Shown here piece after piece: positions 26,379-59,509 of a stretch of 64,000 nucleotides of DNA. The stretch's first letter is position 1; every line of letters starts with the position of its first letter. A program made the translations under genes and the position numbers. The stretch spans positions 1,466 through 65,465 of the forward strand of contig VFJK01000031.1 in the NCBI GenBank assembly GCA_009886125.1, read 5' to 3'. The notes under the pieces were generated by a model. That model was not told the origin of the DNA and did not search any database. It was given only the letters and a program-made list of their open reading frames with translations. Source of the stretch: Geobacter sp. (GTDB lineage Bacteria > Desulfobacterota > Desulfuromonadia > Geobacterales > DSM-12255).

Positions 26379-26382
26379 ACAT

Positions 26383-28955: not shown

Positions 28956-29040
28956 AATACAAACTTTGTGCCAAATTTGCAATAAATCATTATCTAGCTC
29001 TTTACTGTAAACCATATTGGTGCTATAGTTTTTCAACCTT

Positions 29041-29616: not shown

Positions 29617-30125
29617 TTCGTAACTGCTCATTATTCCTATTGTTCTTCTGTGCATTTTCATTTCAGGTTTTTGCTGAGGGGAATCTTCCTGTTTCGCGGC
29701 GGAGCGAGCCCATCACGATCAAATCAGATTCGCTGGTGACTGACAATGACCGGAAGATGGCTACATTCTCCGGGAATGTCGCTGCCAGGCAAGGGGACCT
29801 TACCATATACGCTGACAGGTTTGTTGTCGTCTATTCCTCTGTTGGCAATGAGATCAACACAGCTGAGGTCTTCGGAAATGTTCGTATCTTGCAGGGCCCG
29901 AGAAGGGCTCAGGCTGAACACGGAGTATATGACGCAAAGAGTTCTGTAATCGTCCTGGATGGAAATCCCAAGGTTTTTCAGAACAGTGACACTATCTCAG
30001 GCAAGATCATAACCTACTATCTCGATCAGGATCGAAGCGAAGTCACTTCCGGTTCCGGTAACAGGGTTGAGGCTGTTATATATCCGCAGGGCAAGGGTTC
30101 TGATGGTCGTTCAAAAAAGCCATAA
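29613..30125 (+). CDS. lptA: LPS transport periplasmic protein LptA
   Basis: Signal peptide; OstA_N pattern (PITIKSDSL..., F.GNV...QGDL.I.AD). Confidence 0.85.
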
Positions 30126-30843: not shown

Positions 30844-30877
30844 GCATACAGGGAGATTTTCTTGGCGAGGATAACTG

Positions 30878-32320
30878 ATGGCAATTGAAATGCGCCAACA
30901 GATGAAGCTTACGCAGCAGCTGGTAATGACTCCTCAGCTGCAGCAGGCAATCAAGCTCCTTCAGCTGTCCCGGCTTGAGCTTCAGGACCTGGTGCAGCAG
31001 GAGCTTGAAGAAAATCCGATCCTTGAGGAGACCCTTGAGCAGGAGAGTCTCAAAGAGATTGAGCAGCTCGAGATACAGGAGCTTGAGCCTGAAACCCTTA
31101 AAGAGGGAGATAGCTTCAAGGAAGTTACTGCCGGAAGCGATACGATCAAGGAGATGGACTGGGATTCCTATCTTGATGGATATAATTATAGTTCGGGAGA
31201 GCAGTACAGTGATGACGAAGACCGCCCCTCTTTTGAAAATCTTCTGACCAAGAAAGGGACACTCGTAGACCATTTGATGTGGCAGCTGAACCTTTCAAGA
31301 TTTGAAAAGGAAGATATCGATATAGCTGTCGAGATAATCGGTAATATTGACGAAGATGGTTATTTGAGAAGCACGATTGAAGACATAGCAAGGTCTTACG
31401 AAGTTTCGCAAGAGGCTGTCCAGAGTGTACTGAACAGGATCCAGGATTTTGACCCTCCGGGAGTAGCTGCAAGAGATCTGAGAGAGTGCCTCCTGATACA
31501 GGTCCAGCAGCTGGGGATGCAGGGAGGGGTAGTAGACCTTATTCTGCGCGATCACCTCAAAGATCTTGAAACCAGACGTTACAAGCAAATCTCAAAAGCT
31601 CTGGGAATAAGTCTTCAGGATATTCTGAATGCTGCGAAAATTATCTCAGGGCTTGATCCAAAACCAGGACATCTTTTTGCTCATGATGATATCCAGTATA
31701 TCTCACCTGATATATTTGTGTTCAAGGTAGGTGATGATTATATGGTCACGCTTAACGATGAAGGCCTGCCCATGCTCAGGATCAATCCTTATTACACTGA
31801 TGTGAAGTTCAAGGAGCTGGATTCCGGTACGGAAGAGTATGTCAGCGATAAGATGCGCGCTGCTATCTGGCTTATCAAAAGTATACATCAACGCCAGCGT
31901 ACGATCTTCAAAGCGGCAAAAAGTATAGTAAAATTCCAGAGGGAATTTTTTGAAAAGGGGATTGAGTTTCTTCGGCCGCTGGTACTCCGGGATGTAGCCG
32001 AGGATATTGGGATGCACGAGTCCACTATAAGCCGTGTGACGACAAACAAGTACATGCACACTCCTCAGGGTATTTTCGAGATGAAATATTTTTTTAACAG
32101 TGCCATCTCGATTACCGGGGGTGACTTCATTGCATCTGAAAGTGTCAAGCGGAAGATCAAGGAGCTGATCGATTCAGAAGACCAGAAGAAACCATTAAGT
32201 GACCAGACTCTTGCGGAGATGCTTGCTTTAGGGAATATCAATATAGCAAGACGGACTGTCACAAAGTACCGGGAGATGCTCAGATTAGGGTCATCCTCGG
32301 AGCGTAGAAGGATGTTTTAG
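30878..32320 (+). CDS. rpoN: RNA polymerase sigma-54
   Basis: Q/L-rich region I (LTQQLVMTPQLQQAIKLLQLS) and the RpoN box (ARRTVTKYRE). Confidence 0.97.
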   Translation: MAIEMRQQMKLTQQLVMTPQLQQAIKLLQLSRLELQDLVQQELEENPILEETLEQESLKEIEQLEIQELEPETLKEGDSFKEVTAGSDTIKEMDWDSYLDGYNYSSGEQYSDDEDRPSFENLLTKKGTLVDHLMWQLNLSRFEKEDIDIAVEIIGNIDEDGYLRSTIEDIARSYEVSQEAVQSVLNRIQDFDPPGVAARDLRECLLIQVQQLGMQGGVVDLILRDHLKDLETRRYKQISKALGISLQDILNAAKIISGLDPKPGHLFAHDDIQYISPDIFVFKVGDDYMVTLNDEGLPMLRINPYYTDVKFKELDSGTEEYVSDKMRAAIWLIKSIHQRQRTIFKAAKSIVKFQREFFEKGIEFLRPLVLRDVAEDIGMHESTISRVTTNKYMHTPQGIFEMKYFFNSAISITGGDFIASESVKRKIKELIDSEDQKKPLSDQTLAEMLALGNINIARRTVTKYREMLRLGSSSERRRMF

Positions 32321-39234: not shown

Positions 39235-39945
39235 TTAATCTTTGTCCAGAGCCCTTCTGCTGAACCGGTAACCGACACCTCTCACTGTCTGAAAAAATGA
39301 AGGATTCGTCGGATCAGATTCGAAATATTTCCTGAACCTGACGATAAAGTTGTCAAGAGTCCTTGTCTCGACTTCGGTTGAATACCCCCAGACCCTTTCC
39401 AGTAACTCACTTCGACTGACGGCTGCTCCTTCCTTTTGAAAAAGAAGAGTAAGCATTCGGACTTCAAGGTCGGTCAGGTCAATCTCCCCTTGTGCAGTTC
39501 TCGCTCGGTACGAAAGCAGATATACTTCGTTTTCGCCAAAACGGTAGCCTTCTTCAACAGGTTCAGGCAGATACCAGGAAGAGCGGCGCAGCATCCCTTT
39601 TACCCGGAGCAGAAACTCATTCAAGCTGAACGGCTTGGTAAGGTAGTCATCAGCCCCGCTGGCAAGACCGGTGACCCTGTCACCCTCCTCTGAGCGGGCT
39701 GTAAGCATAAGTATGGGGACTCTTGAATCGGATTCTCTTACGCTTTTGCATAATGTAAATCCGTCCATGCCAGGGAGCATCACATCAAGGATGATAAGTG
39801 CGAATCGGTCATAAAAAAGCCTTTCCAGAGCCGCCTCTCCGGTTTCTACATGGCTGACACGGCAACCCTCCTGCTCAAGATTGAAGCATATCCCTCGCGC
39901 CAGATGGATTTCATCCTCTACGAGCAGAATATTCGGTTTGTCCAT
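39235..39945 (-). CDS. OmpR/PhoB-family response regulator
   Basis: Receiver (ILLVEDE, IILDVMLPGMDG, K in LTKPF) plus a winged-helix C-domain (VRGVGYRF). Confidence 0.9.
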   Translation of the reverse strand: MDKPNILLVEDEIHLARGICFNLEQEGCRVSHVETGEAALERLFYDRFALIILDVMLPGMDGFTLCKSVRESDSRVPILMLTARSEEGDRVTGLASGADDYLTKPFSLNEFLLRVKGMLRRSSWYLPEPVEEGYRFGENEVYLLSYRARTAQGEIDLTDLEVRMLTLLFQKEGAAVSRSELLERVWGYSTEVETRTLDNFIVRFRKYFESDPTNPSFFQTVRGVGYRFSRRALDKD

Positions 39946-40889
39946 TAGTTTGCTCCAGCCATCGGCAGGGAGATGGTAAAACGACTTCCACCCCCCGTAT
40001 TTGCACGCTCGACATAGATCTTCCCGTTATGCCTTTTTACAATTGACTTCACAATGTACAGTCCGAGACCTGTCCCTCTGATCGTTTCTCCAGTCTCTCT
40101 GACACGGTAGAACATTTTGAAGATGTTTTTCAGCTCATCAGGGTCAATACCTCTTCCGTTATCAGATACTGAAAGAGTGCAGTTTCTCCCGTTTTTTCTC
40201 AGTTGCACATGAACTTCCGGGGATGCCGGGCTGTAAAGAAAAGCATTTTCAAGCAGATTGCGGAGCACCATTTCCATCCCTTCGCTATCGATTTTTGCAG
40301 ATATTCCTTGCGCAATTTCTCCGGTAAGACGGCTCTCTTCAGGAAGGTGCTGACCAAACTCCTGAATGAATCTGTCAACAAAGTTGCTTAAGTCGACGAG
40401 TGTCAGAGCGGCACCTAAAGGACGTTGTTCAAGTTTTGCAGCCATCAGGAAATTACTTATGAGACTGTTAAGGCGCTCAGTATCTGCGAGCATTGTATCA
40501 AGAAAGCGCTCCATTTTTTCCGGTGAAGGGTTACGGAGCCTTATTGTCTCGAGATGAAGCCGGATTGAGGCGAGAGGAGATTTGAGTTCGTGCGTTATCT
40601 GGGAGATGAAGGTTTTCTGCTCCGCATAAAGACGTGACTGGCGTTTCCAGTATATAAAAATGATGTAAAGGCCTACTAATACGAGTGCAAGCATGATTAT
40701 GCCGCCTGCAAGCACAGGCCAGTTGATATGCTGCGGAACGAGATCCGGACGATATTTCTCAGCAATTGATCTCAGCTCATAATGTCGTCCCATGAACCAG
40801 AGAATCCAAAGGACGAGAAGTCCGATCCAGATAATCTGAACAGCAATAAGGGTGATTATCGGGTTTAACAGGTATTTAAGTCGACGCAT
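39945..40889 (-). CDS. Histidine kinase with two TM helices and a very short external loop
   Basis: H-box (ITHELKSPLASIRL) and G-box (GTGLGLYIVKSIV). About 25 aa separate the TM helices. There is a 1-nt TAATG overlap with the response regulator. Confidence 0.88.
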   Translation of the reverse strand: MRRLKYLLNPIITLIAVQIIWIGLLVLWILWFMGRHYELRSIAEKYRPDLVPQHINWPVLAGGIIMLALVLVGLYIIFIYWKRQSRLYAEQKTFISQITHELKSPLASIRLHLETIRLRNPSPEKMERFLDTMLADTERLNSLISNFLMAAKLEQRPLGAALTLVDLSNFVDRFIQEFGQHLPEESRLTGEIAQGISAKIDSEGMEMVLRNLLENAFLYSPASPEVHVQLRKNGRNCTLSVSDNGRGIDPDELKNIFKMFYRVRETGETIRGTGLGLYIVKSIVKRHNGKIYVERANTGGGSRFTISLPMAGAN

Positions 40890-41531
40890 GCTTAATGCTT
40901 TAGCATTCGGGAAGTGCTGTTAGCAATCAATTTCGATCATGAGTGACGTTAATTATGAAATGCTGAATTAAAAAATCTTGTTATTGTCGCCAATTAATAC
41001 TATTTTACTCGAATGCAACTGAAACAGACACAATCTACCGCGTTGCGACTCATATCGGTGAACAGAAAAACAGCCATCTTTTTTCTGATAACTCTGACCA
41101 TGACACTGATCACTCTTGGCGTCCGTCTGCCATCTCCAACCGGGATCTCATCCAATTCAGGAAAGCCGAAGCCTCGTCCAAGAGCAGTAATCCAGAACCA
41201 GATTAAAACCTGCAAGCAGATATTAAAGAGCTTTTCAGAGTCGTCAGTATCCATCCCGGAAAACTCTCTCACACTTTTCACATATGAAACAGGCAGGGAA
41301 GTTACTCTGTTTTCCGTTAGTCAACACTCCTCCGTTCCACAATTCAGTGTATCCTCACGAGCACCTCCTTCAATTTTATTTATTTCCTGAATAATCTGAT
41401 CTGTTGTAAGGGGCAAAGCTGTCTGAGATTGATCTGCAGTACCTGCCTTCAACAATAGAATTTCAGTATCCCCTTTAAACCATGCATTCCGGGTTGTCCG
41501 GATAGCCTTATCCAGTTTGAGGAGAGGAGAT

Positions 41532-42536
41532 ATGAAACCTCTTTCGATAGTCATTCCGGTCTACAATGCTGAAAAGACCATTGAATCGCTTTGCAATACC
41601 CTTATAAGCCTCTATTCGGATATGTACGGACTCGAGATTGTGCTTGTGAACGATAACAGCAACGATAGTTCTGATCTTATCTGCAGAAGACTGTATCAGG
41701 AGCAGCCTGAGAGAATCACTTATCTGCGGCTCTCACGGAATTTCGGAGAACATTGTGCCGTCATGGCCGGATTGAATCATGCCTCAGGTGATCTCTGTGT
41801 AATCATGGACGATGATTTCCAGAATCCTCCAGATGAGATAATAAGACTTCTGGAGGAGATGGAAAAGGGGTATGACGTGGTCTACACCCAGTACACTATA
41901 AAGCGCGACAGTTTTTTCCGCAATCTCGGCAGTATTGCCAACGACAAAATGGCTAACCTTATTCTGCGAAAGCCGGCGGATCTATACCTTTCCAGCTTTA
42001 AGATCATAAACAGATTTCTGCTGGGCGAAATCATCAAATACCATGGACCCGACCCGTATATTGACGCCATTATCCTGCGAGCTACAGATAATATCGGCAA
42101 GGTGCCGGTTCGCCATGACGAGAGGAAAACCGGCAGTTCAGGCTATACCATGAAAAAACTGATTTCCCTCTGGGGAAACATGGTGGTCAGCTGTTCGCTG
42201 ATCCCCCTGCGGATTATCGGTATCGTAGGGTTCATCCTGACTGTTTTCGGTGCATACATGGGATTTGATGCTTTAATAGACTGGATCATTCCTACCATGG
42301 AAGACCCGACTGAGTATGAAACCCTGACAGCAGTCACCGCCTTCTTCCGGGGGTTCCAGATGCTTGCAATCAGCGTGGTTGGCGAGTATGTCGGTCGAAT
42401 ATACCTCTCTTTGAATGCAGACCCGCAGTTTGTAATCAGAGAGAAGTTCTCTTCTCCCGGAAAGGGCCAGTTTAAATCAATTCAAAAGGTACACACATAT
42501 AATGACAAAGAGAAATGTAGCAGCACAACGGCATAA
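41532..42536 (+). CDS. GT2 polyprenyl-phosphate glycosyltransferase (ArnC/GtrB/DPM1-like)
   Basis: Start at ATG 41532, behind GGAGAGGAGA. Motifs: SIVIPVYNAEKTI, VNDNSND, IMDDDFQNPP. Two C-terminal TM helices. Confidence 0.85.
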   Translation: MKPLSIVIPVYNAEKTIESLCNTLISLYSDMYGLEIVLVNDNSNDSSDLICRRLYQEQPERITYLRLSRNFGEHCAVMAGLNHASGDLCVIMDDDFQNPPDEIIRLLEEMEKGYDVVYTQYTIKRDSFFRNLGSIANDKMANLILRKPADLYLSSFKIINRFLLGEIIKYHGPDPYIDAIILRATDNIGKVPVRHDERKTGSSGYTMKKLISLWGNMVVSCSLIPLRIIGIVGFILTVFGAYMGFDALIDWIIPTMEDPTEYETLTAVTAFFRGFQMLAISVVGEYVGRIYLSLNADPQFVIREKFSSPGKGQFKSIQKVHTYNDKEKCSSTTA

Positions 42537-43977
42537 AGCATCTGCGACAAAATCCGTGGCGGGTTTCCTGGCAGGGTTGTCTCCCGAAGACTGCCGTCTT
42601 GTTTTCCGCTCTCGTACAGTAAAGTCCTCGCTTCACTCTGACCGATATCTTGACAGGTGGTTGAAATCACGACTTCTTCACCCGGATCTTAAAGTAACCA
42701 CTATTTCATTGAATGACATGAACGGGTGGAGAGTAAATCCCGAAAAGGGGGATATCTCACATGAATCCGGCAGGTTCTTTTCAATTATCGGGGTGGATGT
42801 ACGTCAAAGATCCAAAGACAAAGAGTTCTTTTGGGATCAGCCGGTTATCGATCAGCCTGAAGTAGGGATTCTCGGCATTCTTGCAAAGAGAATAAAAGGT
42901 GTACTCCACTTTTGTCTTCACGCTAAAGAGGAACCGGGGAATATCAACGCAATACAGCTCTCTCCAACAGTGCAGGCGACCTACAGTAACTATACCAGGG
43001 TACATGGCGGCGCTTTGCCTAAGTTCATAAACTATTTTCTTGATCAGACAATTGGCCGTATCATATATGCAAAGCTCCAGACAGAAGATGGCGGCAGATT
43101 TCTGTACAAGTCCAACAGAAACATGATTGTTGAGGCCTTTGATCCTGAACTTGATACCCTTCCCGAAGGTTTTATCTGGCTGACCCTTCGCCAGATCGGG
43201 CGGATCTTGAAAAACGACAATACGGTTCATGCCTGTACCAGGAGCATCCTTTCTGCACTGATTTTACCGGAAAATGTGTGCGGCACTGTCAAGAGTCCGT
43301 CCACCGGACCCGGAGCGCGAAGAGCAGAAAGCAGCAGAGCCGGAGAGATTTTCCAGTGGCTGGACAACAAGAAGGCGTCAACCCACTTTCTGGTGAAACG
43401 GATAGACCTTAACTCCCTGAAAGATTGGGGGATGGATAGAGACGGATCGTTTTCTCACGAAGAGGGGCGTTTCTTCAGAGTTGTAGGTATTGATGTAGAG
43501 TCAAGCGAGCGAGAGGTGTCAATCTGGAATCAGCCTATTTTAGACAACCCCGGAAAAGGTGTTATCGGGCTTCTGTTAAAGGTTGAAAATGGTACGAGAT
43601 ATTTCCTGATGCAGGCAAAAGCCGAGTTCGGGAATAGAGGAATAATCCAGATAGGGCCTACAGTTCAATTTACTCCGGGGAACTACATAGGGAACAAAAA
43701 ACTTCCAAAGCCGTTTCTTTTTGATGAGTTCTGTAATCCGGAATATCACCGATTGAAGTTCGACTCACTTCAGAGCGAGGAGGGTGCACGCTTTTACAAG
43801 GAAGAACATCTTCACAGGATTCTTCTGCTGGGAGATGGTGAAGCGATTCAGATACCGCAAGAGTATATGTGGATATCTGAATCGGATCTGCATTTTTTTC
43901 TCAATATCGGTGAGATGGTAAACTCCTGTGCGAGAAGTGTCGTCTCGATTTTGTTGTGCCAGGAGCTCGCAAAATGA
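42502..43977 (+). CDS. NDP-hexose 2,3-dehydratase (EvaA/TylX3 family, two-lobed)
   Basis: An internal duplication is visible: HESGRFFSIIGVDV...WDQPVIDQPEVGILGIL...PTVQATYSNY versus HEEGRFFRVVGIDV...WNQPILDNPGKGVIGLL...PTVQFTPGNY. Confidence 0.75.
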   Translation: MTKRNVAAQRHKASATKSVAGFLAGLSPEDCRLVFRSRTVKSSLHSDRYLDRWLKSRLLHPDLKVTTISLNDMNGWRVNPEKGDISHESGRFFSIIGVDVRQRSKDKEFFWDQPVIDQPEVGILGILAKRIKGVLHFCLHAKEEPGNINAIQLSPTVQATYSNYTRVHGGALPKFINYFLDQTIGRIIYAKLQTEDGGRFLYKSNRNMIVEAFDPELDTLPEGFIWLTLRQIGRILKNDNTVHACTRSILSALILPENVCGTVKSPSTGPGARRAESSRAGEIFQWLDNKKASTHFLVKRIDLNSLKDWGMDRDGSFSHEEGRFFRVVGIDVESSEREVSIWNQPILDNPGKGVIGLLLKVENGTRYFLMQAKAEFGNRGIIQIGPTVQFTPGNYIGNKKLPKPFLFDEFCNPEYHRLKFDSLQSEEGARFYKEEHLHRILLLGDGEAIQIPQEYMWISESDLHFFLNIGEMVNSCARSVVSILLCQELAK

Positions 43978-45702
43978 AAAGAAAAAGAGATAGCTCCTCA
44001 AAAGATAGGTATACCTCACCCTCCGGAGAGGAGATAAAGGTTCAAACAGTTCAGTCTCCTGATGATTCGCCGGTTCTACCCTTGTCAGAAATCTTATTGA
44101 GGCACAAGGATTCGATTCTTGTCGTACTGTTGTTTTTAGCCGCTCTTGCCGTACGCATATACTCACTCAAGTTTTTTCATGTAATTCCGACTGATGGCAC
44201 AAGCTATGTAGAAACGGCACGATCTGTCGGGCGAGGAGAGATCGATGGTATAGCGGTCTACGGGTTTTACCCGATATTGATCTGGGTTATGAACTTCTTC
44301 ATCAGCGATGGTGAACTCGCTGGCCGACTGGTTTCGGTTCTGTTCGGCTCAATGCTGGTTATCCCGTTATATCTGCTGGGGAGAGATATCTTCTCTAGGA
44401 ATATCGCGCTGTCTGCCTGCCTTGTAGCCGTGGTCTGGCCTCCTCTCGTGGGTTCATCATGCGAAGTTATTACACAGTCCACTCATACGACGCTTCAGTT
44501 GACTGGTGTTTATTTTGTGTGGCGTGCCTTCAAAGAGTACAGAATTTCGGATGGTTGCCTTGCCGGATTTTTCTTCGGGCTCACTTACCTCACTCGACCT
44601 GAAGGGTTGCTCCTCTTTTTTATGACTCCGCTTGCCTTCTTCTGTTTCCGTTTAAAGGAGACCGTTAAAAAGCCGGCGTTTCTTTGGGCTTATTCTGGCT
44701 CTTTTTTCATTTTTTTTTGCCATCAACCTGTTACTTGTTCATCATGTGACCGGTGAGTGGCAGATTTCTGCAAAGACAGATAGCGCGCTGAACGATGCCC
44801 TGAGTTATTATCTTAAAATTCCTGATCTTAATTACATCCCAGGTTACGAACCCAAAGGTTATCTTGATATCCTGAGAGATCACCCGGAATTCATCTGGAA
44901 GAATTCGATTCTTAACATTAAAAAGGCGTGGGAAACGATACTGCCGGTTCCACTCTGGATATTTTTCATGACAGGTTTTTTCTCAGGAGGTTTTTCAAGG
45001 GAGAGAAACATCGTCAGGTTTTTTCTGCTTTCTACAGCGGTTCCTATTGCCGTCTTAGTTGTATTCTACTACATCAATTCCGGATACATCGAGGCGTATC
45101 TGCCGGTCATTTTCCTGATTACGGCCTCAGGTTTTATTACGGCTGAAACATGGTTGAAGGGAAAAATTGCCGGTTATTTAAGTGCCGAACAGAACATTGT
45201 TATTGGAAGGGTACGATTCCTGATTGCCGCTTCGCTTGTTTATGCAGTGATACTTATTGTGCCTCAGGCAATAAGGAAGGATATACCTGATTCAGAATAC
45301 GACCCTGTTGCTGATAACTACAGGCGTGCCGAGAAGCATGTCGGGCTGCTGCTGAAAGAATCGCTTCCCCCAGGAAAGATAATGACCCGTTGGGCAAGGA
45401 TTGCCTTTTACGCCGAACGGGAGTGGGTGAATATCCCTGCGGCTACTACTTATGAGGAGATAATCCTGCTGGCCAGGAAGAGCGGCGTGCGCTTTTTAAT
45501 TGCTGACGGTACGCTTTACAGTATGCGTCCCATGCTCGGAAAGGAGCTTTTTGAACCTCTAAGTGATGGGCAGCAGCCTTACGGGAAATTCTTTCATAAC
45601 GATCCGAATTACAGGGTGAAGGGGCTGCGGCCATTCATGCTATATACGGATCCCAAAAGTATGGGTGTGGTGGTTTATGAAATTGACCAAGAGTCCGGCT
45701 GA
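43974..45702 (+). pseudogene. ArnT/PMT_2-like GT-C membrane glycosyltransferase, interrupted by a +1 frameshift at T-runs
   Basis: Tracked ORFs 43956..44756 and 44746..45702 join into one ~575-aa polytopic protein if a single T is removed at 44702-44718 (...SFFIFFAINLLLVHHVTGEWQ...). The ATG at 43974 overlaps the upstream stop (ATGA). Confidence 0.75.
44702..44718 (+). repeat. Homopolymer tracts T6 (44702-44707) and T9 (44710-44718) at the frame switch
   Basis: Read directly: cTTTTTTcaTTTTTTTTTgcc. Both frames are open only between 44656 and 44756. Confidence 0.9.
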
Positions 45703-46696
45703 AGTGGAAGCACTGGTTTTGACCGCTGCTCCTGTGCGGGTCGGCGTTCTGGGTTGCTCGGATATCGCAAGGAGAAAATTCATCCCGGCGCTTGAAAATT
45801 GCTGTAATGCCACTTTTGCCGCTGTATCAAGTCGCAGTCGGGAAAAAGCTGCAGAGCTATTGCCGGGAATACACTGTCCTATCCTTACTCCTGACGAACT
45901 TCTCCAGGACAGTACTATTGATCTGGTCTATCTCTCCTTACCGAATCATCTTCATGAAGAGTGGTCGATGCGGACTCTGGATGCGGGCAAGCATCTTATC
46001 TGTGAAAAGCCTCTCTCCACTTCACTTGCATCGGCAGAAAAGATTCTTGCCTGCGCTGCAAGGAATGATCGGCTGATTTATGAAAACCAGATGTTTCTGT
46101 TCCATCCCCAACATGAAGCAGTAAGATCGCTGATAGGGTCCGGAAGGATAGGGAGGTTAATATCTCTACGGGCTTTTTTCGGGTTTCCGCTTCCCGGAAA
46201 GGGCGATTTCAGGCTCGATCCGGATCAGGGTGGAGGCGCTTTTCACGATCTGGCGCGTTATCCGCTCGGGATCGCAGTCCATCTGCTGAAAGGGACGCTT
46301 CAGGGCTTCAGGGGCCATTCTTCCTGGCATGACGGGCTCAATAATGCAGTAATCGGGACCGCGTGTACAGATGCAGACGAGCTGTTCAGCTTTTCGATAG
46401 GCTTTGGCCAGCAGTATGAATCACTCTACGAAGTTATCGGTGAATCCGGAAAAATAAGGCTTGAGCGGGCCTTTACAACTCCTGCTGATTATTCGAACAG
46501 GATTATTTTTGCTGAGGGGCTCAAAGTCACAGAGATAGCAGTGGCGCCTGCCGATCATTTCCAGCTGATGATAGAGAGTATCTCTGACATAATCCAGTCC
46601 GGAGCCGACTACTCGTTTCTTAACCGCAGGGCGGCGAAGATTGCGCGCTTTGCAGATGCCATGGAGAGGGGCTGTATAAAACATGAGTATGCATAG
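45677..46696 (+). CDS. Gfo/Idh/MocA-family NAD(P) oxidoreductase (candidate sugar ketoreductase)
   Basis: Rossmann N-terminus (VRVGVLGCSDIARRKFIPAL) and an EKPL motif (ICEKPLS). The start is uncertain (ATG 45677 or GTG 45704). Confidence 0.8.
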   Translation: MKLTKSPAEVEALVLTAAPVRVGVLGCSDIARRKFIPALENCCNATFAAVSSRSREKAAELLPGIHCPILTPDELLQDSTIDLVYLSLPNHLHEEWSMRTLDAGKHLICEKPLSTSLASAEKILACAARNDRLIYENQMFLFHPQHEAVRSLIGSGRIGRLISLRAFFGFPLPGKGDFRLDPDQGGGAFHDLARYPLGIAVHLLKGTLQGFRGHSSWHDGLNNAVIGTACTDADELFSFSIGFGQQYESLYEVIGESGKIRLERAFTTPADYSNRIIFAEGLKVTEIAVAPADHFQLMIESISDIIQSGADYSFLNRRAAKIARFADAMERGCIKHEYA

Positions 46697-47831
46697 TGAC
46701 CATAATTCGATCATTCGCCATGAACCGGTAAAGTACTGGGACTACCTGCCTGAGTACACGCGCCATAAGGCAAATATCCTGAGAATTACAGACGAGGTTT
46801 TTTCCTCCGGCCGCGTCATTCTCGGAAGCCGTGTCGAGACGTTTGAACGGAATTTTGCTGCTTTCTGCGGGGCGGCTTTCGGAATCGGGGTGAACTCCTG
46901 TACCGATGCACTGTTCCTTGCTCTGAAGGCGCTTGATATCGGGGCAGGGGATGAAGTGATCACCGTCTCAAATACAGCTGTCCCGACGGTCGCAGCCATA
47001 AGAGCGAGCGGTGCTCTTCCGGTTTTTGTGGATGTCGAGAGTGACACGTTCCTTATGGATCCGGCATTGCTAGAAGATGCCGTTACCGGGAATACCCGCT
47101 GTATCCTCCCGGTTCATTTATGCGGGCAGGCTGCTTCCATGGAGCCGATTCAGGAGATAGCTTCCAGAAGAGGCCTTTCAGTGATCGAAGACTGTGCCCA
47201 GGCTGCCGGAGCAACGTATCAGGGGCAGAAGGTCGGCAGCATCGGAGACGTCGGCGCTTTTTCATTCTATCCTACAAAAATACTCGGAACTTTCGGCGAT
47301 GCCGGTATGCTGACGACCTCATCCGCGGATATGGCAGGCAGATTGAAACGTCTCAGGTTTTATGGCATGGAGGGAGAGTATTACTCCGAAGAAGAGGGGT
47401 ACAACTCCCGGATCGATGAGCTTCATGCGGCTCTGCTTGATTTCAGGCTGCAGTGGCTTGAGGAGGAGGTCTCACGCAGAAAAGCGATTGCCGACTTGTA
47501 TTCAGAGGGGTTGCAAGGGGTTGGCGATATTTCTCTGCCGGCAATCCGTTCTGACAGAGATCACCGATACTATTTATTCACAATCAGAACCGCCTTCAGG
47601 GATCAGCTTAAACAGTATCTTGCAGAGAACCTCATAGAGACCAGAATAAATTATCCGACCCCGATCCACCTGATGCGCGGCTATACTTTCCTCGGCTATT
47701 CAGCTGGCTCCCTGCCGGTAACCGAGAAGCTTGCCGGAGAGATCCTCTCGCTGCCACTGTATGGTGCGCTTCCGCTGTCTCACGTAGAGCTGGTCATAGA
47801 GCGGATCCGCTCGTTTTTCGCCACGAACTGA
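46683..47831 (+). CDS. DegT/DnrJ/EryC1-family PLP-dependent sugar aminotransferase
   Basis: FERNFAAFCG..., DCAQAAGA, and FSFYPTKILG (PLP lysine). Confidence 0.88.
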   Translation: MSMHSDHNSIIRHEPVKYWDYLPEYTRHKANILRITDEVFSSGRVILGSRVETFERNFAAFCGAAFGIGVNSCTDALFLALKALDIGAGDEVITVSNTAVPTVAAIRASGALPVFVDVESDTFLMDPALLEDAVTGNTRCILPVHLCGQAASMEPIQEIASRRGLSVIEDCAQAAGATYQGQKVGSIGDVGAFSFYPTKILGTFGDAGMLTTSSADMAGRLKRLRFYGMEGEYYSEEEGYNSRIDELHAALLDFRLQWLEEEVSRRKAIADLYSEGLQGVGDISLPAIRSDRDHRYYLFTIRTAFRDQLKQYLAENLIETRINYPTPIHLMRGYTFLGYSAGSLPVTEKLAGEILSLPLYGALPLSHVELVIERIRSFFATN

Positions 47832-47837
47832 AAACTC

Positions 47838-48602
47838 ATGAACCAGCATGAATACCGGCAGATGTATCAGGTTGAGGATTTTCACTGGTGGTATGTTTCT
47901 CTCCATGAACTGATCGTATCCGTTGTCTCAAAGGCGCGCTCCGGAACAGAAGAGTTACGGATTCTTGATGCCGGGTGCGGAACGGGGCGACTTATCCAGA
48001 TTCTCGAAGCTTTCGGCATCGTGTCCGGTTGTGATATTTCGTACGATGCACTGGACTGTTGCCGGCAGCGAGGTCTGACCGGGGTGTTCAAGGCCGATCT
48101 CAACAATGCGGTTTTCCCTGCTGTCCACTATGACGTGATCACCTCTATAGATACCCTTTATCACAACGCTGTCGAGGATGAAAAAGTCATCCTCGCACGA
48201 TTTCATGATGCGCTCAAACCTGGCGGGTTGGTGATAATAAACCTGGTCGCGCATGAATTCCTGCGCAGCACCCACGATATGGCTGTGCATACCAGAAAGC
48301 GTTATACCCGGAGAGAGGTCGTCAACCTGCTTGAGGAGAGCGGTTTTGTCGTCCAGATGGCGACGTACAGGTTGGGGCTGCTTTTTCCTCTGATTGCTTC
48401 ATACAGGCTGCTTCGCAGATTGTTCAATTGCGAATCTGACGCAGAACAGGTAACTTCAGATGTCCATCTTCCGAACAAGTTCATTAACCGGTTACTCCTC
48501 AGCCTGTCCAGAGTCGAGAACCGGTTTATCCTCAAAGCACCCATTCCTGTCGGTACATCAGTCTTCGCTGTCGGAAAGCGTCCGCTATCCGGTCCCTCCT
48601 GA
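47838..48602 (+). CDS. Class I SAM-dependent methyltransferase
   Basis: ILDAGCGTGRL motif I; EDFHWWY N-terminal motif. Confidence 0.8.
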   Translation: MNQHEYRQMYQVEDFHWWYVSLHELIVSVVSKARSGTEELRILDAGCGTGRLIQILEAFGIVSGCDISYDALDCCRQRGLTGVFKADLNNAVFPAVHYDVITSIDTLYHNAVEDEKVILARFHDALKPGGLVIINLVAHEFLRSTHDMAVHTRKRYTRREVVNLLEESGFVVQMATYRLGLLFPLIASYRLLRRLFNCESDAEQVTSDVHLPNKFINRLLLSLSRVENRFILKAPIPVGTSVFAVGKRPLSGPS

Positions 48603-53918: not shown

Positions 53919-53923
53919 TATTG

Positions 53924-54586
53924 ATGCGTAATCAGAATACACCTATTGCTATGGAGGGGCTCCCCTTTGTTGCCGGTTTTTCCGGGGGGGCTCTTCTTTT
54001 CTATCTCTTTTCAGAGAATCTGCACTCTCAATTACTGCTTGCGTTATCAGTTTTTGCACTGCTGCTGGCAGGGTTTTCGCTGTATTTTTTCCGTAACCCG
54101 CATAGGAGAATCCCGGCAGTAGACGGTGCTGTTGTCTCTCCGGCTGACGGTGTCATCATTTACCTCGGAGATGCCGTAGAAGAGCATCTTGGTGTGCAGA
54201 TGACGAAGATAAGCATCTTCATGTCGGTATTTAGCGTCCATATTAATCGAGCACCGGTTAGTGGCAGGATTATCGATAATTTTTATGTGCAGGGCAAATT
54301 TCTTGATGTAAGAGACGAACGTGCTACATTTGAGAACGAAAGAAACGGCCTGGTAGTAGAGACCCTGAAAGGTGTTATAATCGTAGTGGTGCAAGTGGCC
54401 GGACTTATTGCCCGGCGGATCGTCTGTTATCCTATCGTCGGAGAGATGATAGTTCAAGGGGAGCGTTACGGACTGATCCGTTTCGGGTCGCGACTCGACG
54501 TATACGTGCCGAAGGGATCGGATATACAGGTCAAGCTTGGCCAGAAAACGATCGCCGGAGAGACAGTCCTGGGGAAACTTCAATGA
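53924..54586 (+). CDS. psd: Phosphatidylserine decarboxylase (short, archaeal/Psd-related type)
   Basis: FGSRLD self-cleavage G-S motif near the C-terminus; N-terminal TM helices. Confidence 0.82.
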   Translation: MRNQNTPIAMEGLPFVAGFSGGALLFYLFSENLHSQLLLALSVFALLLAGFSLYFFRNPHRRIPAVDGAVVSPADGVIIYLGDAVEEHLGVQMTKISIFMSVFSVHINRAPVSGRIIDNFYVQGKFLDVRDERATFENERNGLVVETLKGVIIVVVQVAGLIARRIVCYPIVGEMIVQGERYGLIRFGSRLDVYVPKGSDIQVKLGQKTIAGETVLGKLQ

Positions 54587-55380
54587 CAGAACAACAGTCA
54601 AGCCGCTCTGAAAGCATGCGTAAGGGGATTTACATACTTCCTAATCTCTTTACGACGGGAAGCCTTTTTGCCGGTTTTTACGGGATGGTTTCCGGGGTAA
54701 ACGGTGATTACCGGACCGCTGCGATCTGGATACTGGTTTCTGCAGTTTTTGACGGCCTTGACGGTAAAGTAGCAAGAGCTACCGGTACCACAAGCAAGTT
54801 CGGAGTTGAATACGATTCTCTTGCGGACCTGGTAGCTTTTGGTGTTGCTCCCGGGCTGCTGATGTACTTATGGGCACTGAAACCTTTTGGCAGGCTGGGT
54901 TGGCTTGCTGCCTTCCTTTTCGTGGTGTGCGGCGCTCTTCGCCTGGCCCGGTTCAATGTTCAGGTTGACACGGTTGAAAGCAAGCGCTTTATCGGCTTGC
55001 CTATACCTGCTGCAGCCAGCATGGTATCGGCGACAATACTGTTTTTCCATCACATGGGGTGGCCGAGCTCGTATAAGAAGCTTGCTATCCTGATTCTGAT
55101 CTATCTTCTTGCTTTTCTGATGGTCTCAAATGTCAAATATTATTCATTCAAAGATCCTGAAATCATAAAGAAGCAGCCTTTCGGTTTTCTGGTGCTGCTG
55201 GTACTCCTTCTCATAGTTATTGCAGCAGAACCGGCGATCATGATGTTTGCTCTTTTCTGTTGTTACCTTCTTTCCGGTCCGATAACCTATCTTGTCTCAA
55301 TGCCAAGGCGCAGAAGACTGGAAAAGGCTATTCATAAAGGGCATGAATCGGTTTCAGATGGTGGTGACAAGAGTGAGTAG
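54583..55380 (+). CDS. pssA: CDP-diacylglycerol-serine O-phosphatidyltransferase
   Basis: CDP-alcohol motif DGLDGKVAR...G...DSLADLV. Confidence 0.88.
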   Translation: MTEQQSSRSESMRKGIYILPNLFTTGSLFAGFYGMVSGVNGDYRTAAIWILVSAVFDGLDGKVARATGTTSKFGVEYDSLADLVAFGVAPGLLMYLWALKPFGRLGWLAAFLFVVCGALRLARFNVQVDTVESKRFIGLPIPAAASMVSATILFFHHMGWPSSYKKLAILILIYLLAFLMVSNVKYYSFKDPEIIKKQPFGFLVLLVLLLIVIAAEPAIMMFALFCCYLLSGPITYLVSMPRRRRLEKAIHKGHESVSDGGDKSE

Positions 55381-55426
55381 TGTATCGCATATAAAATCGC
55401 ATATAAAATTACGAATATAAAATTAC

Positions 55427-55456
55427 TTGACAATTTTTATAGATTTTCTCTATCAT
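55427..55456 (+). promoter_or_regulatory. Sigma-70-type promoter of the leuA leader
   Basis: TTGACA (55427-55432), N18, TATCAT (55451-55456). Preceded by three ATATAAAAT repeats (UP-like). Confidence 0.45.
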
Positions 55457-55489
55457 CTACAAAATTATAAAAGCTGTGAAGAGGAGTAG

Positions 55490-55818
55490 TAGTCTCAACT
55501 CTTTTTAAAGAGAGCCGGTGGGTGGTGCAAACCGGTAAAAGAGCAGATGAACTCGCCTTGGAGCCGCTCCGGTGAAATTAAGTAAGCGGAGACGCTGTCC
55601 CACGTAACGGGCATAGAGACCCTTCAAGCGGTTCGATTTTGGGTTCAGGTCAAGGCAGGCAAGAAGGAGATGGCGAGGCGTACCAGCGGTACGTCGAGTC
55701 GTTGACGACGCAGCCAACGCTGATATGGGCTCAAAGGCGAAACGCCTTCCGGGTGAATGAGGGTGGTACCGCGGAGACTTATGCCTTCGCCCCTTGATTA
55801 GGGGTGGAGGCTTTTTTG
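55490..55818 (+). promoter_or_regulatory. T-box leader (Leu, candidate CUC specifier) with an intrinsic terminator
   Basis: AGAGA box at ~55509. GAA-CTC-G is at 55549-55555 (CTC at 55552-55554). The canonical T-box AATGAGGGTGGTACCGCG is at 55757-55774. The terminator GCCTTCGCCCC-N7-GGGGTGGAGGC + TTTTTT ends at ~55818. Confidence 0.8.
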
Positions 55819-55885
55819 TATCTTGGGTCGTAAATACTGGATTCTGTGGAACAATTGAGCAAAAACAAGGGGAGGAATTGATACC

Positions 55886-57439
55886 ATGGCAAAAAAAGAC
55901 GCATTAAAAACTATCAAGATCTTTGACACAACGCTGCGGGATGGTGAGCAGGCGCCAGGCAACAGCATGAATATCGAGGAGAAGCTCCGGATAGCCAAAC
56001 AGCTGGAAAAACTCAAGGTTGATGTTATTGAGGCAGGTTTTCCGATTGCTTCCGATGGCGATTTCGAAGCGGTAAAAAGAATTGCCAAGGAAATCAGGGG
56101 GCCGGAAATAGCCGGGCTCTGCCGTTCAAGCGAAAAAGACATCGACAGAGCCTGGGAGGCGCTTCAATATGCCGGAGAGCGTGGCAGGATTCATACTTTC
56201 ATAGCCACCTCTGACATTCATATGAAATACAAACTGAAAATGGAGCCTTCCAGGGTTCTCGAAGCTGCGGTTAAGGCGGTAAAACGGGCAAAGTCATTCA
56301 CCCCTAATGTTGAATTCTCCTGTGAAGATGCTGTGCGCACCAGACTCCCGTTTCTTGCCGAAGTAGTGGCGGCTGTTATTGACGCCGGTGCAACAACAGT
56401 AAATATTCCCGATACGGTCGGGTATACTATCCCGTTCGAGTACTTCAACATCATCAAATATCTCAAGGATAATGTTGCTAATATCGAGCAGGCTGTTATC
56501 TCAGTCCATTGTCATAATGATCTTGGCCTATCCGTTGCCAATTCGATCGCTGCCATCCAGGCAGGCGCCGGTCAAGTGGAGTGCACCATTAACGGCATCG
56601 GAGAGCGCGCCGGCAACTGTTCGCTTGAAGAGTTTGTCATGGCACTAAGAACCCGTCACGATATTCTGCCTTTCAGAACAAACGTGGTTACTGAACAGAT
56701 CATGCCGGCAAGTCGTCTCCTCTCTACCATTACCGGTATCATGGTCCAACCTAACAAGTCAGTTGTCGGGGCGAATGCTTTTGCGCATGAATCCGGGATT
56801 CATCAGCACGGGATGCTGATGGACAAGTCTACCTACGAAATCATGACCCCGGAATCGATTGGCCTGAAAACCAGCTCTCTGGTTCTGGGTAAGCACTCAG
56901 GTCGGCATGCGTTCAAGAAAAGGTTGGAAGAGCTCGGGTACGAACTGAATGATGCGGATCTGAACAAGGCATTCAACCGCTTTAAAACACTGGCCGATCT
57001 AAAGAAAGAGGTATTTGACGAAGACCTCGACGCAATCATGACGGAAGAGATAACGCGCGAAGAGGAGAAGTACAAGCTTGATCATATTACGGTGACCTGC
57101 GGCTCTTTTGCTGTTGCAACCGCTACAGTCCAGATGGAAATAGAGGGTAAACCTTTCAGGACCGCAGAACTTGGAGACGGCCCTGTCGATGCTACTCTGA
57201 AGGCGATTAAGAAGCTGACAAAGTGTAAGGCAAAGCTGCTCACGTATAATGTCGGAGCAATCACAAGCGGTACGGATGCTCAGGGTGAAGTGACAGTAAA
57301 GGTCGCCGAAGGAGACAGGACTGTTACGGGCAGGGGGTCTTCGACGGACATCATTGAAGCTTCTGCAAAGGCTTTTATAAATGCTCTGAACAGACTGGAT
57401 GTAATGAAGGAGAGATTCGAAGAGAGAAATGCTTTATAG
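55886..57439 (+). CDS. leuA: 2-isopropylmalate synthase
   Basis: IFDTTLRDGEQ; HCHNDLGL; C-terminal LeuA dimer/regulatory domain. Confidence 0.95.
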   Translation: MAKKDALKTIKIFDTTLRDGEQAPGNSMNIEEKLRIAKQLEKLKVDVIEAGFPIASDGDFEAVKRIAKEIRGPEIAGLCRSSEKDIDRAWEALQYAGERGRIHTFIATSDIHMKYKLKMEPSRVLEAAVKAVKRAKSFTPNVEFSCEDAVRTRLPFLAEVVAAVIDAGATTVNIPDTVGYTIPFEYFNIIKYLKDNVANIEQAVISVHCHNDLGLSVANSIAAIQAGAGQVECTINGIGERAGNCSLEEFVMALRTRHDILPFRTNVVTEQIMPASRLLSTITGIMVQPNKSVVGANAFAHESGIHQHGMLMDKSTYEIMTPESIGLKTSSLVLGKHSGRHAFKKRLEELGYELNDADLNKAFNRFKTLADLKKEVFDEDLDAIMTEEITREEEKYKLDHITVTCGSFAVATATVQMEIEGKPFRTAELGDGPVDATLKAIKKLTKCKAKLLTYNVGAITSGTDAQGEVTVKVAEGDRTVTGRGSSTDIIEASAKAFINALNRLDVMKERFEERNAL

Positions 57440-57552
57440 AAGTTCATCCAGATAATTGCATAGACCGGTTTGTCTGAGGGATTTGGAATTTACCGATGTA
57501 AAACGGTATATTGGTGAGTTCCGAGTCCCTAAGTTTCAGATAAACCGGTTTT

Positions 57553-58422
57553 TTATTTCTGCGCAGTTCCGGCAACAGACCAGGGGAAGTCACGCAGATG
57601 CTCGGCAAGTTCTTCTCTGCTATAGCGGTTTATTCGCCGGACTGCAAGAATCAGGATTATGGAAAGTGGCAGTAGTGTGGCAAAAAACCCGGATATCGCA
57701 ACGGTTAACTCATGTATGAGGATTGCGATGACAAGGTTGAATATGATAATCGAAAGATAGAGGAGTACAGGGAACAGGGCGCTCCCTGGGAAATTGCAGA
57801 CCCCAAATGGCGGCGTTGTCGTCGTGGTACTACGCGAGCCGGCAAGCCTTTGAAGAAGAAAAATCATAAGGCTGCTGACGATAAACCATCCGAAATAATT
57901 TGTCAGAGGTACACCGAAATGATGGCCTGTTTCCCTGTATCCGTATATCTCTCCAAGAAACCAGTGTTTCCCTTGCAGTGCAACCGGATCAATGATGATA
58001 TCCAGATATGTCTGTAGTAGCGATCCAAGAAGGAGCGCAGAAAAAGATCGTCGCAGAGATACTGTCTCAAGCAGGATAAGATTTTTTCTGGCGAACTTTA
58101 AAGGTGAGAGGATGAAAAGAGCCGTTGCGTAACTGCAATAACAGAGGAAAACATACGACAGAGAATCAAAAAAAGGGACTCCGGCAATCCAGAGTTCTCT
58201 TGAACTGGTCCTGTCAATATAGTAGTACCATCCGTAAGGGAACCCTGTATTTATTGACGAGAATTCAGAAGCAAATGCGGTCAGGTAGCCGATGAAAGTA
58301 AAAACAGAGACTTTCTTCCACCCCAGATGTGGAACTGAAGCGATGATATAGGCAGCGAAGAATGCAAACACGTAGGGTCTCATGGTGACGGTCCCAACGG
58401 CTATCTGCATCATATCGTTCAT
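57553..58422 (-). CDS. Polytopic membrane protein resembling the 'carotenoid biosynthesis protein' (CruF-like, PF04240) family
   Basis: 289 aa with ~8 TM segments. The start overlaps the MlaD stop (TGATG). The family assignment is from memory of the sequence style only. Confidence 0.45.
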   Translation of the reverse strand: MNDMMQIAVGTVTMRPYVFAFFAAYIIASVPHLGWKKVSVFTFIGYLTAFASEFSSINTGFPYGWYYYIDRTSSRELWIAGVPFFDSLSYVFLCYCSYATALFILSPLKFARKNLILLETVSLRRSFSALLLGSLLQTYLDIIIDPVALQGKHWFLGEIYGYRETGHHFGVPLTNYFGWFIVSSLMIFLLQRLAGSRSTTTTTPPFGVCNFPGSALFPVLLYLSIIIFNLVIAILIHELTVAISGFFATLLPLSIILILAVRRINRYSREELAEHLRDFPWSVAGTAQK

Positions 58423-59492: not shown

Positions 59493-59509
59493 CGTGCTCT
59501 CCTTCAATC

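Follow-up and report, generated by a model that had tools for sequence, protein, structure and literature searches.

What do the six genes at positions 41532-48602 make, and to which acceptor is their product delivered? The locus lies on the plus strand of a 64,000-nucleotide (nt) stretch of Geobacter sp. contig VFJK01000031.1, which is called the window here and to which all positions refer, and it places glycosyltransferases of the lipid-carrier type among sugar-nucleotide tailoring enzymes. The first-pass annotation had named six co-directional genes, tightly packed or overlapping, and the open reading frames (ORFs) and Pfam matches bear out all six gene types on the plus strand (Table 1). 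Neighbouring genes of the cluster either overlap or leave 6 nt between them, which is consistent with one operon, and the gene order is kept in 53 other genomes, which excludes juxtaposition by chance.

We consider it likely that the locus is an operon for periplasmic lipid-carrier glycosylation of the "three-component" or Arn-like kind, and that its sugar is a dTDP-derived, probably N-methylated amino-2,6-dideoxyhexose. A scheme of this kind, in which an ArnC-like family 2 glycosyltransferase (GT2) puts a dTDP-derived 2-deoxy(amino)sugar onto polyprenyl phosphate and a GT-C enzyme transfers it outside the cytoplasm, had been proposed at the first pass and is supported at the sequence level. 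The hallmark of a three-component system, a polyprenyl-phosphate sugar synthase and a GT-C enzyme at the same locus, is present, with the GT-C frameshifted in the window. We infer the regiochemistry of the product, the acceptor and the regulatory output.

Table 1. Position, strand and support of the features of the glycosylation locus and its 5' flank (aa, amino acids; PLP, pyridoxal phosphate; SAM, S-adenosylmethionine; NDP, nucleoside diphosphate).
Feature	Position	Strand	Support
OmpR/PhoB-family response regulator, divergent from the cluster	39235-39945	-	Pfam Response_reg and Trans_reg_C
Histidine kinase	39945-40889	-	Pfam HisKA and HATPase_c; transmembrane residues 4-22 and 59-77; short outer loop
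Direct repeat TTAGCATTC / TTAGCAATC, 20 nt start to start	40900-40928		Repeat search
Leader ORF, 125 aa, candidate ribosome-arrest peptide	41013-41390	+	Third-position substitution pattern; homologues
ArnC/GtrB-type GT2 polyprenyl-phosphate glycosyltransferase	41532-42536	+	PF00535, E 3e-30
Two-lobed NDP-hexose 2,3-dehydratase, EvaA-like	42502-43977	+	PF03559, E 1.6e-135, two stretches
GT-C glycosyltransferase (PMT_2), +1 frameshift	43974-45702	+	PF13231, E 3e-13
Gfo/Idh/MocA sugar ketoreductase, KijD10-like	45665-46696	+	PF01408 and PF22725
PLP-dependent NDP-sugar aminotransferase (DegT/DnrJ/EryC1)	46683-47831	+	PF01041, E 4e-106
Class I SAM methyltransferase	47838-48602	+	Methyltransf_25/11/23

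For the comparison between genomes, the scan took one genome per species and resulted in 53 loci, and the compared set comprised 57 sequences (56 loci, designated by L numbers, and the window). The order GT2-dehydratase-(GT-C)-reductase-aminotransferase-methyltransferase was found in 53 species-level genomes of the Geobacterales, Desulfuromonadales and Nitrospirota. The GT2 gene stood immediately 5' of the dehydratase gene in 53 of the 57 sequences; the four exceptions were two loci at contig ends, one in which the GT2 was undetected, and a Nanoarchaeia locus. The aminotransferase and methyltransferase followed downstream in 51 loci, the Gfo reductase was present in 43, and a PMT_2 GT-C lay within the cluster in 15. 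Loci without a PMT_2 GT-C usually had another polytopic protein nearby. A protein of about 611 aa, with an N-terminal membrane domain ("GFVGDDY") and C-terminal tetratricopeptide (TPR) repeats, occurred in 23 loci (L023:15774-17618, L001:13352-15160, and 21 more). In L030 (6859-8835, 17003-18757 and 18776-20683 on the minus strand), extra PMT_2 proteins were accompanied by a polytopic protein of 658 aa that is rich in hydrophobic segments and matches no Pfam family. These extra or alternative polytopic proteins may reflect several acceptors or several steps. Additionally, a B12-binding radical-SAM gene followed the methyltransferase in 13 related loci (L030:14219-15727, L023:14308-15798, and 11 more) and was absent from the window; it might modify the sugar or the acceptor further, possibly by methylation.

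The proposed pathway would start from dTDP-4-keto-6-deoxyglucose, supplied by RmlA/RmlB encoded elsewhere. The EvaA-like dehydratase would then remove the 2-hydroxyl group to give a 3,4-diketo-2,6-dideoxy sugar, an activity predicted from its membership in the family, which is itself clear. The protein matched EvaA (4j7g) with E 2e-81 in two stretches that cover both lobes, and it carries the tandem Nudix-like Hexose_dehydrat domains, two in one chain. Residues E139 and E190 of EvaA are proposed to be catalytic (2022 review, PMC8987622). E144 and E195 take their places here, and neither position varies among 12 members of the clade (alignment A3). The first pass had allowed for the case that ORF 42502-43977 would fail to score as a hexose 2,3-dehydratase; it scores strongly and keeps both glutamates. 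The dehydratase had 2,350 database homologues at E <= 1e-20, and the nearest named ones belong to Geobacter, Geotalea, Geomobilimonas, other Geobacteraceae, Desulfuromonadales and Nitrospirota.

The two lobes are encoded by separate adjacent genes in six metagenome-assembled genomes (MAGs) of Nitrospirota/Thermodesulfovibrio (L047, L048, L050, L052, L053, and L054) and in one Deltaproteobacteria MAG (L051), for example L053:9875-10666 with 10654-11433 and L050:9740-10657 with 10665-11414. Each of these genes has its own start and stop, the junctions vary between MAGs, and the MAGs come from different studies. The split dehydratase thus looks like a natural two-gene form of an EvaA-type enzyme, cut at the duplication boundary, and not like a sequencing frameshift.

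In the third step, the DegT enzyme would aminate the sugar, more likely at C3. Its nearest structures were 7b0d (2e-96), QdtB (5e-88) and DesV (1e-86), with ArnB (5e-42) and DesI (3e-34) far behind, and the PLP lysine, not the histidine of dehydrases, is readable in "FSFYPTKILG". By similarity ranking alone, QdtB, DesV and WbpE came well ahead of ArnB, DesI, WecE and perosamine synthase. We take the former group to be C3 transaminases and the latter to be C4 transaminases, and C3 transamination is therefore favoured by the nearest relatives, QdtB and DesV. The cluster lacks a reductase in roughly ten loci (e.g., L001, L026, L035, L037, and L053), which favours direct action of the transaminase on what the dehydratase forms.

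The KijD10-like reductase would take the remaining keto group in the fourth step, or would act at C3 first, before transamination at C4. It has the N- and C-terminal domains of the Gfo/Idh/MocA family, and the sugar 3-ketoreductase KijD10 (3rbv) was its best match in the Protein Data Bank (PDB), at E 4e-47, the next protein following at 1e-28. Its true start is probably the ATG at 45677. That wide margin in favour of a C3-ketoreductase is what speaks for the same machinery with another regiochemistry, in which the KijD10-like enzyme reduces C3 first and the DegT enzyme then aminates C4, so that the product would be an N-methylated 4-amino-2,4,6-trideoxyhexose of the kedarosamine type. A precedent exists in the forosamine pathway, in which the 2,3-dehydratase works with a 3-ketoreductase of the Gfo type, a 4-aminotransferase and an N-methyltransferase. 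However, the aminotransferase is far nearer to QdtB, DesV and WbpE than to ArnB, DesI, WecE and perosamine synthase, and the reductase-less loci would leave a C4-transaminase without a substrate; we regard this course as rather unlikely. When the two orders are weighed only against each other, the homology evidence leans modestly to C3 transamination over the order that leads to a 4-amino-2,4,6-trideoxy sugar. Either order is predicted to give a cationic 2-deoxy amino sugar, whose residue would have a calculated mass increment of 129.08 Da unmethylated, 143.09 Da with one methyl group and 157.11 Da with two.

The fifth step, N-methylation of the amine, is the weakest of the pathway. A family profile of 23 methyltransferase sequences was compared with the PDB, and the SAM-binding half alone matched (positions about 37-135). 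The matches included phosphoethanolamine N-methyltransferases, TylM1 (6e-8), DesVI (4e-7) and CalS10 (8e-7), and generic methyltransferases scored above them. The profile found the generic SAM fold and did not select N-methyltransferases, and reading the substrate from it was abandoned. The enzyme probably N-methylates the amino sugar.

The finished sugar would be moved onto undecaprenyl phosphate by the GT2. Residues 2-304 of this protein aligned with residues 8-312 of the ArnC structures (E 1e-45), membrane region included, followed by GtrB sll0501 (E 1e-28) and an archaeal dolichyl-phosphate mannose synthase (3e-13). A hydrophobic segment lies near the C-terminus (residues 218-236), and the architecture of a polyprenyl-phosphate glycosyltransferase, with a GT-A domain of the GT2 family, a C-terminal membrane part and an alignment over the full length, is present. 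Against the ArnC equivalog NF007986 of NCBIfam, the GT2 scored 176 bits with a cut-off of 529. Judged by these scores, it is an ArnC-like polyprenyl-phosphate glycosyltransferase and not ArnC proper.

After an unlinked flippase had carried the lipid-linked sugar across the membrane, the GT-C would hand it to an envelope acceptor, which could be lipid A or core, a protein, or another glycan. The first pass had described a GT-C of about 575 aa. A PMT_2 GT-C is indeed present, although not as one ORF: it reads as two (43956-44756 and 44746-45702), split at a T9 run. Alignment with intact orthologues located the break as one extra T in this run (44710-44718), the longest homopolymer of the 64-kb window, and the orthologues have runs of at most six T at this site. 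With one T removed, "...SFFIFFAINLLLVHHVTGEWQ..." is restored and a 575-aa GT-C collinear with the intact orthologues results. An intact 575-aa relative (P0324) exists in public data and clusters at 90% identity with the C-terminal fragment, and the fragment itself is recorded separately as a 318-aa protein in NCBI and Logan. The two halves are 69-79% identical to orthologues and carry no other lesions.

The broken frame is either a slipped-strand mutation, with the last step off, or a homopolymer error in the assembly. If it is real, the locus may be a decaying or switched-off remnant that decorates nothing in this genome. A +1 frameshift placed in the window's longest homopolymer, and the separate record of the 318-aa fragment in both databases, agree with such a remnant. 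However, the remaining genes are all intact, the halves show the identity to orthologues given above with no further lesions, and assembly errors classically occur at homopolymers of this kind (9 nt). From what is published on the sequestration of undecaprenyl phosphate, the GT2, if active while its GT-C is lost, would be expected to trap this carrier, so that a real frameshift should be counter-selected. We hold decay to be doubtful.

The GT-C had been called ArnT-like, which stands at the level of fold and not at that of sequence. A single-sequence search of the PDB gave no match, a profile search gave AglB alone (1e-3), and neither gave ArnT; in NCBIfam there was only a weak match, to a Leptospira putative glycosyltransferase family. 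Membership in the ArnT (GT83) family was rejected on these searches of the PDB and NCBIfam. The family of this GT-C is small, with about 130 database proteins, almost all in this gene context. We modeled the orthologue P0121 (73% identical) with AlphaFold2 from a 28-sequence alignment, and the model reached a predicted local distance difference test (pLDDT) of 87.6 and a predicted template-modeling (pTM) score of 0.86. Foldseek matched it to STT3 of oligosaccharyltransferase complexes (E 9e-10, template-modeling (TM) score 0.59), AglB (9e-8), PglB (3e-7) and also ALG9, and to ArnT (5ezm/5f15) with E 1.5e-7 to 5e-7 and TM scores of 0.49-0.55, so that STT3 and AglB outrank ArnT. The protein O-mannosyltransferases scored lower. 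According to the model, the enzyme has the GT-C_A fold. All of these matches use donors linked to polyprenyl (pyro)phosphate, and the lipid-carrier logic therefore holds; a grouping with enzymes that do not use polyprenyl-phosphate sugars, which the first pass had named as fatal to its idea, is not what the modeled structure indicates.

The GT-C_A fold is silent on whether the acceptor is lipid A, protein or glycan, and lipid A is therefore a guess. Glycosylation of periplasmic or surface proteins, O- or N-linked, would make the locus something other than an Arn analogue. This alternative draws on the best structural matches of the GT-C, the oligosaccharyltransferases STT3, AglB and PglB, with ArnT placed behind them in our account, on its Pfam family PMT_2, and on the downstream polytopic protein of the 23 related loci, whose TPR repeats are a protein-binding module. 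Nevertheless, the E-values within the GT-C_A group are close (9e-10 versus 1.5e-7, with TM scores of 0.49-0.59) and similarity of fold leaves the acceptor undefined, the GT2 has ArnC as its nearest match, and apart from the leader the locus holds no conserved candidate for an acceptor protein. Protein as the acceptor is accordingly a tentative suggestion that we consider less than likely.

Several partners of such a system are missing from the locus. RmlA/RmlB, a flippase of the GtrA or ArnEF type, a formyltransferase and a deformylase were not found among the scanned window ORFs of at least 150 aa (ORF 27219-28184, presumed kdsD, was unscanned), in agreement with the first pass, which had noted no RmlA/RmlB, flippase or deformylase in the window. 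Additionally, neither RmlA/RmlB nor a formyltransferase, a deformylase or a small flippase was conserved beside the cluster in the 57 sequences. For the flippase, ORFs of at least 70 aa from the 57 sequences were clustered, and the families present in at least six sequences were judged from the first 120 residues of their representatives. As a result, no small family with several transmembrane segments was seen as a dedicated flippase (GtrA, SMR, or MATE), the leader having a single transmembrane segment.

The first-pass annotation had also suggested that the cluster is richer in AT and forms an accessory island. The guanine-cytosine (GC) content is 0.486 in the cluster, 0.507 in the window and 0.511 ± 0.040 in 46 other genes, so that the difference is marginal, and the upstream housekeeping block (kdsC, lptCAB, rpoN, hpf, ptsN, hprK, rapZ, ptsI, and metK) is equally low, at 0.46-0.50. 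The impression of AT richness comes from ilvD and ilvB, with 0.56-0.58. The arrangement of metK, response regulator and histidine kinase, and cluster is shared by seven relatives, in two of which (L003 and L004) ilvD also lies 3' of the cluster. An island is contradicted by this composition and synteny, and an AT-rich island was rejected on GC content, GC at third codon positions and synteny. Composition and synteny together indicate an old locus, kept vertically in the clade.

The same surroundings bear on whether the sugar might decorate a secondary metabolite, as it does for the 2,3-dehydratase clusters of actinomycetes. All characterized 2,3-dehydratases listed in the 2022 review come from antibiotic pathways (PMC8987622), which is the ground for this reading. 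However, neither the window nor the conserved neighbours include a polyketide synthase, non-ribosomal peptide synthetase or GT1-type glycosyltransferase, the only transferases are the GT2 of the polyprenyl-phosphate glycosyltransferase type and the GT-C enzymes, both of the membrane, and the setting is one of housekeeping genes in conserved synteny. A glycosylated metabolite is very improbable. The first pass knew of no description of the gene combination, and this is supported: with only antibiotic pathways in that review, our literature searches found no published description of the cluster, although their coverage was incomplete and the absence of a report is not thereby proven.

We compared the locus with three groups of known systems. 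The likeness to Arn (PmrHFIJKLM, which puts 4-amino-4-deoxy-L-arabinose (L-Ara4N) on lipid A) lies in a DegT transaminase for a cationic amino sugar nucleotide, an ArnC-type GT2, a GT-C_A enzyme in the periplasm and a two-component system beside the genes. In contrast to the UDP-pentose-derived sugar of Arn, the sugar here would be a 2,6-dideoxy one derived from a dTDP-hexose; the locus has a methyltransferase and lacks ArnA (decarboxylase/formyltransferase), the deformylase ArnD and the flippase ArnE/F; and the GT2 is far under the ArnC equivalog cut-off while the GT-C is not ArnT by sequence. An Arn operon, with ArnA, ArnD and ArnE/F alongside ArnB, ArnC and ArnT, was thus not found among the scanned window ORFs of at least 150 aa or the conserved neighbours in the 57 sequences.

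The three-component systems (GtrA/GtrB/Gtr* and the pentofuranose systems; Kelly et al. 2024, PMC11127046) likewise have a polyprenyl-phosphate sugar synthase and an extracytoplasmic GT-C, and the GT2 also matches GtrB sll0501. They differ in that the flippase is unlinked here, the tailoring genes for the sugar nucleotide stand within the operon, and the donor would be a dTDP-deoxyaminosugar, a donor for which we found no report. The actinomycete pathways to dTDP-3-amino-2,3,6-trideoxyhexoses (EvaA-E for epivancosamine; angolosamine, megosamine, and daunosamine) share the combination of 2,3-dehydratase, DegT transaminase, ketoreductase and methyltransferase, and the catalytic glutamates of EvaA are kept. 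The hosts here are instead Geobacterales, Desulfuromonadales and Nitrospirota, the product would go to a lipid carrier, and there are no epimerase, GT1 glycosyltransferase or aglycone genes; the reductase is of the Gfo type and KijD10-like, and the methyltransferase is not like TylM1/DesVI beyond the SAM fold. In predicted operation the locus is like the Arn and Gtr-type systems, and it fails membership in ArnC, ArnT and the Arn operon.

Expression of the operon would be controlled at two levels, by the divergent two-component system and by a leader that stalls the ribosome at RAPP; the first pass had noted neither of the two. The operon is probably regulated by the adjacent two-component system, with the leader as the second control level. 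The nearest NCBIfam models of the response regulator were MtrA and PhoB, both below their cut-offs. A regulator 86-95% identical to it adjoins the cluster in nine loci, which are all loci with one in the cluster neighbourhood, and the histidine-kinase family stands beside the cluster in 15 loci; an adjacent two-component system is restricted to the closest relatives. The direct repeat (TTAGCAWTC) lies beside the histidine-kinase start, in a DNA block conserved in the window, L003 and L002, and it is a candidate box for the adjacent OmpR/PhoB-type regulator.

The gap between the kinase and the GT2 gene measures 640 nt and contains a conserved DNA block with third-codon-position changes in one plus-strand frame (alignment A2), which is the leader ORF. 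It had no Pfam or Rfam match. The encoded peptide has a transmembrane helix at aa 21-39 (Kyte-Doolittle peak 2.02; family median peak 2.39), a short Ser-rich stretch, an invariant KPKPRPRAV, about 60 freely varying residues and RAPP at aa 116-119 (nt 41358-41369). Six codons follow before the stop, and the C-terminus reads "...SSRAPPSILFIS-stop". Homologues stand 5' of the operon in 32 of the 57 sequences, including loci with another gene before the GT2. The spacer between leader and GT2 is 141 nt in the window and has a median of 141 nt in 27 loci (range 71-272). In L007 and L056, which keep metK, the response regulator, the kinase and the GT2, only about 185-230 nt separate kinase and GT2 and a leader ORF was not detected, so that the leader is dispensable where the two-component system remains.

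A profile search with the leader retrieved 83 database proteins, all unnamed, without a precomputed Pfam domain and mostly of 105-125 aa. In 82 of the 83, a C-terminal motif occurs within the last 20 residues (RSPP in 52, RAPP in 26, RDPP in 2, RGPP in 1, and RASP in 1), 2-12 and usually 2-8 residues before the stop. The codons of the motif vary synonymously, which indicates that selection acts on the peptide. In 18,578 residues of window proteins, R[AGSD]PP occurs once, in the leader. The last proline follows the polybasic segment at a distance of about 72 residues (66-74, standard deviation 2.3, in the 53 of 82 family members in which the pattern was located), so that the linker is constrained in length and unconstrained in sequence.

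These traits are those of an arrest peptide: a small co-directional upstream ORF, an N-terminal transmembrane segment and a conserved RAPP-like motif near the C-terminus. RAPP and RGPP are reported to stall robustly, while the substitutions to RSPP and RDPP were partly permissive in ApdA and ApdP (Fujiwara et al., EMBO J 2025, PMC12992588). The same study reports that RAPP-type motifs are purged from proteomes and that they cluster close to the C-terminus in small secretory or membrane proteins whose genes stand upstream of diverse others. The motif spectrum of the leader family (RAPP/RSPP/RDPP/RGPP) corresponds to this arrest-competent or partly permissive set. On this basis, we lean towards a leader that stalls the ribosome at its C-terminal RAPP. 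With the RAPP-type peptides (ApdA, ApdP, and SecM-like; CruR; the Streptomyces lividans upstream ORFs of PMC12992588), the leader shares its small size, the N-terminal membrane-targeting segment, the motif a few residues before the stop and the position directly 5' of a co-directional operon, without other sequence similarity. It differs from the peptides of that study by the glycosylation-operon context, glycosylation genes having no mention in its text or text-format supplements, and by the invariant KPKPRPRAV about 72 residues from the putative stall site. The SecM/MifM mode differs as well, in that no structure sequestering the Shine-Dalgarno (SD) sequence was detected here.

The 125-aa ORF might instead be an ordinary small membrane protein, such as an accessory subunit or the acceptor itself, whose RxPP motif is kept for reasons other than arrest. 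This would fit with the lack of any SD-unmasking or attenuator structure, with a KPKPRPRAV segment too far from the C-terminus for the exit tunnel, which implies a function of its own, and with the Ser/Thr/Pro-rich stretch that follows the transmembrane helix. It fits less well with an R-x-P/S-P motif held 2-12 residues from the stop in nearly the whole family, after a 60-residue linker fixed in length alone. At position 2, the motif moreover admits A, S, D and G alone, the residues shown by experiment to be permissive (PMC12992588), and the ORF invariably occupies the operon's 5' end, also in loci with a further gene ahead of the GT2. We think an ordinary membrane protein unlikely and continue with the arrest peptide.

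A number of observations weigh against the interpretation of the operon and its leader given here. On the side of the pathway, the flippase and rmlAB are unlinked, both in the window and in the related loci, and the GT-C is broken, so that the pathway may be non-functional in this genome. By its sequence searches, the GT-C is not an ArnT family member, and the methyltransferase resembles generic SAM-binding folds only. The nearest solved relative of the reductase is a C3, not a C4, ketoreductase, which conflicts with an order in which a C3 transaminase acts first. On the side of the leader, the ORF is absent from 25 of the 57 sequences, and the unpaired probability of the GT2 SD sequence was 0.36 when free and 0.37 with the footprint of a stalled ribosome (27 loci; constrained partition-function folding), with a gain above 0.1 in just 2 of the 27. 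No terminator was found in the spacer of the window, spacers are not consistently structured (mean folding z -0.48), and a bias of C over G, looked for as a Rho site, was weak (18 of 27 loci).

Several output mechanisms were rejected on these data. Unmasking of the GT2 SD sequence in the SecM/MifM manner was discarded for want of an accessibility gain across the 27 loci, and an intrinsic terminator or attenuator in the spacer was discarded with none found in the window and no consistently stable folding. The Pro-Pro codons CCUCCU of the window were considered as an anti-SD element and dismissed, as the Pro codons vary freely across loci. No riboswitch or leader RNA between kinase and GT2 matched Rfam up to E 1. 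By analogy with tnaC, whose output is Rho-dependent, the output of the leader could be Rho-dependent.

With its fixed ruler and polycationic stretch, the leader may serve to monitor whether KPKPRPRAV is inserted into the membrane or translocated. In its most far-reaching form, the leader would be a membrane-inserted arrest sensor with a fixed-length "ruler", in which KPKPRPRAV reports the electrical or charge state of the inner membrane or envelope and stalling at RAPP feedback-controls the addition of a cationic N-methylated 2-deoxy-aminosugar, a sugar not yet known outside actinomycete antibiotics, to lipid A or lipopolysaccharide (LPS), so that the locus would be a self-contained surface-charge homeostat. 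We offer this as speculation and consider it improbable.

Additional features were recorded around the cluster. A kdsB-pyrG-kdsA-(kdsD)-kdsC-lptC-lptA-lptB-rpoN block for LPS precursor synthesis and transport occupies 23965-32320, with the cluster about 9 kb downstream of it, and psd, pssA and mlaD/mlaE lie 3' of the cluster at 53921-60301, so that the surroundings are rich in envelope-lipid genes. The ORFs of lptA (29613-30125) and lptB (30067-30843) overlap by 59 nt, and the lptB start is probably called too far 5'; a G8 run (30306-30313) lies within lptB. The sole Rfam match of the window at gathering score was a T-box leader (RF00230, 55467-55797, plus strand, 110 bits, E 2e-23), directly 5' of a leuA-like gene (55886-57439).

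If the assignment is correct, 2,3-dehydratase chemistry would reach beyond antibiotic glycosides to the decoration of envelopes in Nitrospirota and the metal-reducing Geobacterales, and a dTDP-deoxyaminosugar would join the short list of sugars borne by undecaprenyl phosphate. The leader would be a RAPP-type arrest peptide before glycosylation genes and a testable case for the recent proposal that these peptides also regulate functions other than protein export. The cluster is widespread in an environmentally important clade and chemically unexpected for an envelope pathway, and it has cultivable carriers in Geomonas (such as Geomonas paludis), Citrifermentans (Citrifermentans bremense), Geotalea (Geotalea toluenoxydans) and Geobacter sp. 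OR-1, whose locus (L015) has its GT-C inside the cluster. Should the product be cationic and end up on lipid A or LPS, its function would parallel that of Ara4N, with a bearing on surface charge, contact with metal oxides and resistance to cationic peptides.

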